A stretch of DNA of 64,000 nucleotides. It comes from an uncultured Dictyoglomota bacterium. GTDB taxonomy: Bacteria > Dictyoglomota > Dictyoglomia > Dictyoglomales > Dictyoglomaceae. Under the pieces are notes generated by a model. It worked only from the letters and a program-made list of their open reading frames with translations, was not told the origin of the DNA and did no database searches. Where the stretch lies: NCBI GenBank assembly GCA_964654465.1, contig CAZZIO010000040.1:160001-224000 (forward strand), in the 5' to 3' direction. Shown in pieces: positions 32,458 through 32,642 of this stretch; the first letter of the stretch is position 1, and every line of letters starts with the position of its first letter. A program made the position numbers and the translations under genes.

Positions 32458-32479
32458 ATATGTTTGAACCCCCTTTCTT

Positions 32480-32566
32480 TTATATGAGATAAAAAAACGG
32501 ACATACCCACATTTTTATTATGGATATGTCCGCTTTATAATCATTTATTTTTAATATTTTTTTCAA
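32480..32566 (-). CDS. Putative 28-aa pyr leader peptide
   Basis: GGGAGG, 4 nt, [31 protein letters not shown]; reads through the attenuator hairpin; SD spacing is short. Confidence 0.5.
32491..32533 (-). terminator. pyr attenuator terminator
   Basis: Minus strand GCGGACAUAUCCAUA-loop-UGUGGGUAUGUCCGU followed by a U-run, upstream of pyrR. Confidence 0.88.
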
Positions 32567-32574
32567 TTTTCCTC

Positions 32575-32605
32575 CCTTTTTAGCCTCACTGGGCTAAATT
32601 AAAGG
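32575..32605 (-). ncRNA. PyrR binding site (binding-loop RNA)
   Basis: Minus strand CCUUUAAUUUAGCCCAGUGAGGCUAAAAAGG matches the CUUUAA...AGUCCAGAGAGGCU...AAAG pattern of PyrR sites. Confidence 0.88.
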
Positions 32606-32613
32606 ACCAATGT

Positions 32614-32642
32614 ATTATAAAAAATAAAAGACTAAGTGTCAA
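32614..32642 (-). promoter_or_regulatory. Consensus sigma70/A promoter of pyr operon
   Basis: TTGACA (32642-32637), 17 nt, TATAAT (32619-32614); predicted +1 near 32607, just before the PyrR site. Confidence 0.9.

Follow-up and report, generated by a model that had tools for sequence, protein, structure and literature searches.

How might PyrR control a terminator that is separated from the PyrR-binding hairpin by a spacer made almost entirely of A and U? The question is raised by the pyrR leader in the window, by which we mean the whole 64,000-nucleotide stretch of DNA from an uncultured Dictyoglomota bacterium analyzed here. The original prediction, drawn from the letters of this stretch, held that PyrR occludes the Shine-Dalgarno (SD) box of a short leader reading frame and that a ribosome translating this frame melts the terminator when PyrR is absent. 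Comparison of 12 leaders from the same phylum and 98 leaders from a survey across phyla supports that mechanism, and we regard the locus as probably a transcription attenuator under PyrR control whose antiterminator is a translating ribosome and not an RNA helix.

The window belongs to a 1.9-Mb genome of 31.6% G+C. The sequencing runs that contain its DNA are hot-spring metagenomes, so folds computed at 70°C are relevant to it. The features of the locus are collected in Table 1; the PyrR protein scores 264.5 bits against NCBIfam NF003549, for which the cut-off is 138. The promoter ahead of the leader had been described as perfect, and so it is: among 12 promoter-like sites in a scan of 31800–33800 it is the sole one to match the consensus at all 12 positions (10.6 promoter-like sites would be expected in shuffled sequences), and TTGAC(A/T) stands at the place of the −35 hexamer in all 12 leaders of the phylum. 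A 345-amino-acid ORF (32649–33686, minus strand) ends 7 nt ahead of this hexamer; it has a TrmB-like Methyltransf_4 domain at residues 25–191, followed by about 150 C-terminal residues without a Pfam match. Elsewhere the window holds a 92-nt tRNA gene with a long variable arm (54308–54399, minus strand; 61 bits).

Table 1. Features of the pyrR leader and the pyr operon, with positions counted from the first letter of the window.
Feature	Position	Strand	Details
−35 hexamer TTGACA	32637..32642	minus	12/12 consensus promoter with the −10 hexamer; 17-nt spacer
−10 hexamer TATAAT	32614..32619	minus	12/12 consensus promoter
PyrR-binding hairpin	32574..32606	minus	Rfam RF00515 alignment; consensus fold of 12 leaders
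Leader SD-like box GGGAGG	32571..32576	minus	First Gs paired in the lower stem of the hairpin
Leader ORF	32480..32566	minus	TTG 32566–32564; 28 codons; TAA 32482–32480
Intrinsic terminator hairpin	32494..32536	minus	18 pairs, 7-nt loop; wholly inside the leader ORF
Terminator U-tract	32491..32497	minus	7 T; read as Phe-Phe in the leader frame
pyrR GGGGG box	32473–32469	minus	
pyrR	31906..32457	minus	183 aa; ATG at 32457; NCBIfam NF003549, Pfam Pribosyltran
Downstream operon pyrBCKDF	27286..31921	minus	ORFs and Pfam matches
pyrB	30968–31921	minus	Pfam
pyrC	29686–30984	minus	Pfam
pyrK-like gene	28934–29689	minus	Pfam
pyrD	28024–28950	minus	Pfam
pyrF	27286–28023	minus	Pfam

A PyrR-binding loop had been placed at the very 5′ end of the transcript, and a search with Rfam agrees. 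RF00515 (PyrR binding site) matches 32609–32493 on the minus strand with 58.6 bits where the gathering threshold is 54 (E = 1.8e-5), over model positions 1–115 and so at full length; judging from the promoter spacing, transcription would start at about 32608–32607, 2–3 nt ahead of the hairpin. This is the single RF00515 match in the 1.9-Mb genome, and it lies directly upstream of pyrR-pyrBCKDF in a genome that encodes PyrR itself. The hairpin is built of a lower stem, (U)CCUUU/AAAGG(G), an upper stem, UUAGCC/GGCUAA, and the loop CAGUGA, and all 11 of its pairs are kept, nearly invariant, in the consensus fold of the 12 leaders from the phylum. The hairpin alone folds with −13.9 kcal/mol at 37°C and −3.8 kcal/mol at 70°C, and the leader as a whole folds better than all 200 of its shuffles (z = −5.25). 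Where the RF00515 alignment covers the middle hairpin of the Rfam model, it contains many non-pairs. R1, a model of the PyrR hairpin alone, likewise gives one strong match in the genome (57.6 bits), together with two weak ones (E = 0.10 and E = 0.73); the former of these two was rejected as a further PyrR box, sitting as it does inside a gene and on the opposite strand.

The terminator stem in the window has −24.2 kcal/mol, and the terminators of the phylum range from −18 to −29 kcal/mol. Five of the eight terminator pairs in the consensus fold show compensatory changes among the relatives. RNA folding and covariation, which had been named as a check on the original prediction, find only the PyrR hairpin and this terminator kept; the consensus fold of the 12 leaders contains no third conserved helix. 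We looked for an antiterminator by folding each leader from the start of the hairpin to the end of the terminator loop, both freely and with the 5′ strand of the terminator constrained to be unpaired. In the window, upstream pairing of that strand is worth −1.7 kcal/mol at 37°C, dropping to 0.0 at 70°C, with 0 nt of it paired to the hairpin region; for the 12 leaders the values are −0.9 to −3.9 kcal/mol at 37°C and again 0.0 at 70°C. The upper stem of the PyrR hairpin is formed in all 12 of the 37°C folds. One relative (L017) pairs the 5′ strand of its lower stem with the start of the terminator 5′ strand instead at 37°C, and was scored with 6 nt of loop-competing pairing worth −2.9 kcal/mol. 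A stable antiterminator that competes with the hairpin is thus not predicted in 11 of the 12 leaders at 37°C, nor in any of the 12 at 70°C, in keeping with the earlier view that no Bacillus-type antiterminator can be drawn here. As a positive control, the terminator 5′ strand pairs into the hairpin region over at least 4 nt in 21 of 28 leaders from Bacilli, so that the method, a minimum free energy (MFE) folding that leaves aside kinetics, tertiary contacts and proteins, is able to see the classical switch where it is present. The weak alternative pairing that had been suggested, a GUCC/GGAC duplex, does exist in the window (−6.6 kcal/mol) but is no better than in shuffles, 19% of which equal it; the corresponding figure in relatives is 5–77%. 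Being at chance level and not conserved in relatives, it was rejected as an antiterminator.

The description of the leader frame given in the original prediction holds throughout. The SD-like box, into which the AAAGG of the hairpin had been seen to run, overlaps the 3′ strand of the PyrR hairpin: G34–G36 pair in the lower stem, and in the MFE fold UCCUUU pairs with GGAGGA in an alternative register that buries the whole box. Only AAAA, 4 nt, separates GGGAGG from the TTG, a spacing that had correctly been entered as a caveat. The TTG-started frame covers the entire terminator hairpin and U-tract and stops 6 nt ahead of the GGGGG box of pyrR. The spacer between the TTG and the terminator is close to pure A/U as claimed (26 of 27 nt A/T, 0.96), and its RNA is A-rich, with about 30% U (AAAAAAAUAUUAAAAAUAAAUGAUUAU). 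The predicted peptide has no match to an NCBIfam family.

The order, class and phylum of the window consist of one family with three genera, and searches at each of these levels returned the same nine genomes of at least 90% completeness; 11 genomes in all gave 12 leaders, the window's own included, with one genome contributing two copies. The PyrR element is present in all phylum genomes examined. An SD-like box, the TTG and a frame open as far as the terminator, whose conservation had been put forward as a test, are kept in all 12 leaders, while the spacer diverges. GG(G)AGG is found in 11 leaders and GGGGG in the remaining one. TTGA is invariant in all 12, at position 42–43, although the gap that precedes it varies in its bases and measures about 3–5 nt, and the spacer that follows it can barely be aligned. 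The TTG frame meets no stop ahead of the terminator in any of the 12 leaders, and frame +2 has stops in the spacer in 11 of them; frame +1 is uninformative because it always stops at the TGA that overlaps TTG-A. Mononucleotide-shuffled spacers stay open with a probability of 0.22–0.32 each, and the product over seven clearly different spacers is about 8e-5, a rough figure that overstates the case because the 12 leaders are kin.

The frame ends beyond the terminator in eight leaders, in the terminator loop in three (both copies in G005, and G008), and runs on in frame into pyrR in one; an end before the terminator occurs in none of the 12. Where the stop lies in the terminator loop, protection would depend on a ribosome at the stop codon. 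The frame overlaps the start of pyrR in two of the leaders (L004 and L009), and the one without a stop, in G001 (L005), runs in frame into pyrR, giving MIKRYIVKVNKAGISMKVGIPAFFMPMKGGKSMYFQEKAK...; if translated, this leader would be an N-terminal extension of PyrR. Apart from a Pro/Ala-Phe-Phe imposed by the terminator and U-tract, the peptides are not conserved, which is expected by a leader-peptide model and equally by a non-coding RNA. The two copies in G005 (L006 and L020, on two contigs) are near-identical over the leader and the start of pyrR and differ at few bases, the hairpin loop included (CAGTGA vs CGGCGA); they may stem from a duplication or from two strains binned together.

Compared with other genes of its genome, the leader has a ribosome-binding site that looks weak. 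Its 4-nt spacing is unusual: in 690 inferred starts, taken from ORFs of 100 codons or more, the gap between GGAGG and start codon peaks at 7–10 nt and is 4 nt in 31 cases; TTG begins 95. That so poor-looking a site is held fixed may mean either that it is a weak site that PyrR can outcompete or that the box is kept for its pairing in the hairpin, and the invariant TTG favors a deliberately weak ribosome site. The conserved GGAGGA could also be kept as an extended lower stem with UCCUUU and not as an SD box, which would leave the invariant TTG still unexplained. As a possible cause of the TTGA conservation we considered a promoter-like site, TTGAAA-18-GATTAT (32537–32566, minus strand; 9/12), in whose −35 hexamer the leader TTG lies. 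It was rejected as being at chance level; by eye, there is no −10 hexamer at that distance in G005, and those in G003 and G001 are weak.

The survey across phyla drew on two sets of loci. An alignment of PyrR proteins yielded 80 loci from many phyla, in which R1 found 78 hairpins; 75 were analyzed after three weak hits, in L058, in L044 and on the minus strand of L089, had been excluded. A Trueperaceae PyrR query yielded 80 more loci, of which 30 were chosen as taxa not already covered; R1 found 22 hits in these, and 19 were analyzed. Leaders were dropped where the terminator was not found, overlapped the hairpin or was separated from it by over 170 nt, which removed 11 of the 75, 4 of the 19 and, from an initial set, L019, so that the survey comprised 98 leaders after exclusions. 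A leader was scored as having an antiterminator if at least four bases of the terminator 5′ strand paired to positions below 38 in the MFE fold, and as having a leader frame if an ATG, GTG or TTG at hairpin position 35–48 opened a frame of at most 80 codons that ended no earlier than 15 nt before the terminator. This frame criterion is permissive, with a base rate of about 35–40% in shuffles.

Leader frames are enriched over shuffles only in leaders without an antiterminator. Where no hairpin-competing antiterminator was scored, a frame is present in 36 of 48 leaders, against 16.2 expected from shuffles; where one was scored, the count is 24 of 50, against 20.1 expected (Fisher odds ratio 3.25, p = 0.007 over the 98 leaders, uncorrected for relatedness). 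The frames in the antiterminator-less group start with ATG in 23 cases, GTG in three and TTG in ten, and all ten TTG starts belong to the window's phylum; the phylum leader that was scored as frameless is that of G001, whose frame meets no stop ahead of pyrR. Among the qualifying frames are two of only 2–3 codons, one from Halanaerobiales and one from Pseudogracilibacillus. Clear examples of the layout include Meiothermus rufus, Deinococcota DY0809b, Rokubacteria, Zixibacteria, several Omnitrophota, Ignavibacteria and Melioribacter. Three leaders, from Dehalococcoidales (L055), Chloroflexota (L077) and Nitrospinota (L092), seem to combine an ATG frame that extends to the terminator with 9–10 nt of complementarity between terminator and hairpin and may be intermediates between the two leader classes.

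Other arrangements also came to light. In two Trueperaceae-like leaders (L091 and L102, with hairpins at 841–879 and 529–569, respectively), the hairpin is followed directly by a GTG in frame with pyrR, and a terminator was not found in either. To judge from this layout, they look like direct translational repression of pyrR of the mycobacterial type inside Deinococcota, where they stand beside Thermus-type relatives. In four Acidobacteriota/Vicinamibacterales leaders (L078, L095, L156 and L172), the hairpin precedes an ATG or GTG and a frame of 34–50 codons made of repetitive C/A-rich units, for instance GCACGA or CTCACTTT repeats. A canonical terminator was not found in three of these four, and they may represent a different read-out of the same PyrR sensor.

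The following sequence of events would account for the layout in the window. When uridine nucleotides are high, PyrR would clamp the hairpin and keep the 30S subunit off the SD box and the TTG; because part of the SD box is in the hairpin's 3′ strand and the TTG follows after another 4 nt, no 30S subunit should be able to load while PyrR is bound. The untranslated RNA would then fold the terminator, and RNA polymerase would stop before pyrR. When pyrimidines are low, the hairpin would be free of PyrR, and since the free hairpin is predicted to have no more than marginal stability at 70°C (about −4 kcal/mol), the site should open at growth temperature. A ribosome could then start at the TTG and cross the nine-codon A/U-rich spacer close behind the polymerase. 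Translation of some 5–10 codons would suffice to cover the 5′ strand of the terminator before the polymerase finishes the 3′ strand, and with the terminator hairpin blocked in this way, pyrR-pyrBCKDF would be transcribed. Translation of the leader frame and its dependence on PyrR we infer from sequence comparison, and we infer likewise the occlusion of the ribosome site by PyrR and the coupling of ribosome and polymerase.

Other readings of the locus have to be weighed against this one. Were the leader a classical Bacillus-type switch, an RNA antiterminator competing with the hairpin and the terminator would have been missed and the leader frame would be incidental. The Rfam model, built on Bacillus-type leaders, does match end to end, L017 does have 6 nt of terminator-to-hairpin pairing, and the GUCC/GGAC pairing does exist. 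Yet the gain from upstream pairing does not exceed 3.9 kcal/mol at 37°C and falls to 0.0 at 70°C, against terminators of −18 to −29 kcal/mol, the middle hairpin of the Rfam model falls on many non-pairs, the GUCC/GGAC duplex is equalled by 19% of shuffles (5–77% in relatives), and the consensus fold is without a third helix; a switch of this kind, which would also leave the invariant TTG and the open frame unexplained, strikes us as rather unlikely. We judge it quite unlikely, too, that the frame is a chance product of relatedness that is never translated, with PyrR or another factor acting, for example, directly on termination. Such an account has to accommodate a frame that is open in all 12 leaders across diverged and very A/T-rich spacers, a start codon that is invariant beside variable spacer bases, and an enrichment of frames that is limited to antiterminator-less leaders across many phyla, even though the weak ribosome-binding site, the unconserved peptide and the high base rate of the ORF criterion are all in its favor.

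PyrR might also act mainly on translation, with the leader frame delivering ribosomes to pyrR and the terminator serving as a constant partial brake outside the control of PyrR. This would suit the leader stop 6 nt ahead of the pyrR SD box, the frames that overlap the start of pyrR (L004 and L009) or are fused to it (L005), and the Trueperaceae-like leaders, in which no terminator turned up and the PyrR box lies directly on a GTG in the pyrR frame. It is harder to square with a strong terminator that has compensatory changes and lies inside the frame in all 12 leaders, or with the three frames that end in the terminator loop, far from pyrR, and it seems to us unlikely; moreover, a ribosome translating the frame must affect hairpin formation, so that this account merges with the one in which the ribosome acts as antiterminator. 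The leader frame that passes through a terminator ahead of pyr genes is also the layout of pyrBI in E. coli, where a UTP sensor is at work: polymerase pausing at low UTP would let the leader ribosome catch up, and PyrR would be accessory. The spacer here is A-rich, with about 30% U, and not U-rich, so that no UTP-limited pausing would be expected ahead of the terminator, and a high-scoring PyrR hairpin sits on the SD box in every relative; a pyrBI-like sensor is very improbable.

If the ribosome does act as antiterminator, the PyrR hairpin would be a portable sensor that is wired to two actuators, an RNA helix or a ribosome, and attenuation would be explained in a thermophile of 32% G+C in which an A/U-rich antiterminator could not fold. 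We put forward, as a tentative extension, that one Rfam family may hold two classes of leader: an RNA-antiterminator class in Bacilli and many Clostridia, and a ribosome-as-antiterminator class that might be the common form, and maybe the older one, in at least ten other lineages (the window's phylum, Thermaceae and other Deinococcota, Omnitrophota, Rokubacteria, Zixibacteria, Ignavibacteria/Melioribacter, Nitrospinota, Nitrospirota and some Chloroflexota among them). Under the same proposal, the leader ribosome-binding site in the window's phylum would be kept deliberately weak (TTG, 4-nt spacing, half buried) so that PyrR can win over the ribosome even when heat leaves the free hairpin barely stable. 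The invariant TTG, the invariant SD box and the cross-phylum link between frame and antiterminator offer clean targets for mutation, and annotation pipelines that label every RF00515 match a Bacillus-type attenuator would miss the small ORF.

How, then, does the window compare with known systems? The pyrL-pyrBI system of E. coli and Salmonella operates without PyrR, its signal being UTP-sensitive pausing of the polymerase in a U-rich stretch. The window is like it in having a leader frame that runs through the terminator and, as proposed here, a ribosome that acts as antiterminator, and unlike it in having a PyrR site and no U-rich pause stretch. B. subtilis has three PyrR sites. The window shares with its pyr attenuators the PyrR family, the hairpin consensus, an intrinsic terminator and autoregulation with pyrR as the first gene, but its genome has one site, its leader frame starts beside the hairpin, and no antiterminator that would exclude both hairpin and terminator is predicted in it. 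The B. subtilis PyrR is an anti-antiterminator, as a passage of the review PMC4347634 relates (citing Lu and Switzer, 1996), and the passages on PyrR in PMC4347634 and PMC6524683 describe the Bacillus mechanism only; for the pyrL-pyrBI attenuator, PMC6524683 refers to Turnbough and Switzer (2008). Full-text literature searches returned no paper whose title or abstract opening concerns a PyrR-gated leader peptide.

In Mycobacterium smegmatis, as Fields and Switzer reportedly described in 2007, PyrR represses translation by occluding the ribosome site of the first structural gene, with no terminator involved. The window resembles this system in that the hairpin overlaps a ribosome-binding site, for which PyrR would compete with the 30S subunit; unlike it, the occluded site in the window is that of a 28-codon leader that encloses a terminator, and the ribosome-binding site of pyrR itself follows the hairpin at a distance of about 100 nt, past the terminator.

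The closest counterpart is the Thermus type, whose sequence features recur in the window, where the hairpin overlaps the SD box of a short leader frame, the TTG follows 4 nt on and the frame runs through the terminator; none of the 12 phylum leaders has a frame that ends short of the terminator loop. In the pyrR-pyrB-bbc-pyrC leader of Thermus strain ZO5, Van de Casteele et al. are said to have found in 1997 a PyrR box, a leader peptide and a terminator but no antiterminator, and to have proposed that a translating ribosome prevents the terminator from forming. A member of the same family in our survey, Meiothermus rufus (L106; Thermaceae), has the layout: its hairpin is followed by AAAGGAGAG, and an ATG at position 42 opens a frame of 30 codons that crosses the terminator. 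The window belongs to a different phylum, in which the start is TTG, whereas it is ATG in Meiothermus; the spacing is fixed at about 4 nt and the spacer is A/U-rich, in a genome of 32% G+C; and the window's frame stops before the pyrR SD box, whereas that of Meiothermus runs on to the start of pyrR. To our knowledge, the Thermus model has never been tested directly. By its sequence, the window leader lacks what defines the Bacillus and mycobacterial types and has the features of the Thermus type. Because this wiring has long been proposed for Thermus, the window provides a further example of it and not a new principle: it is of a known but experimentally thin kind, found here in a further thermophilic phylum.
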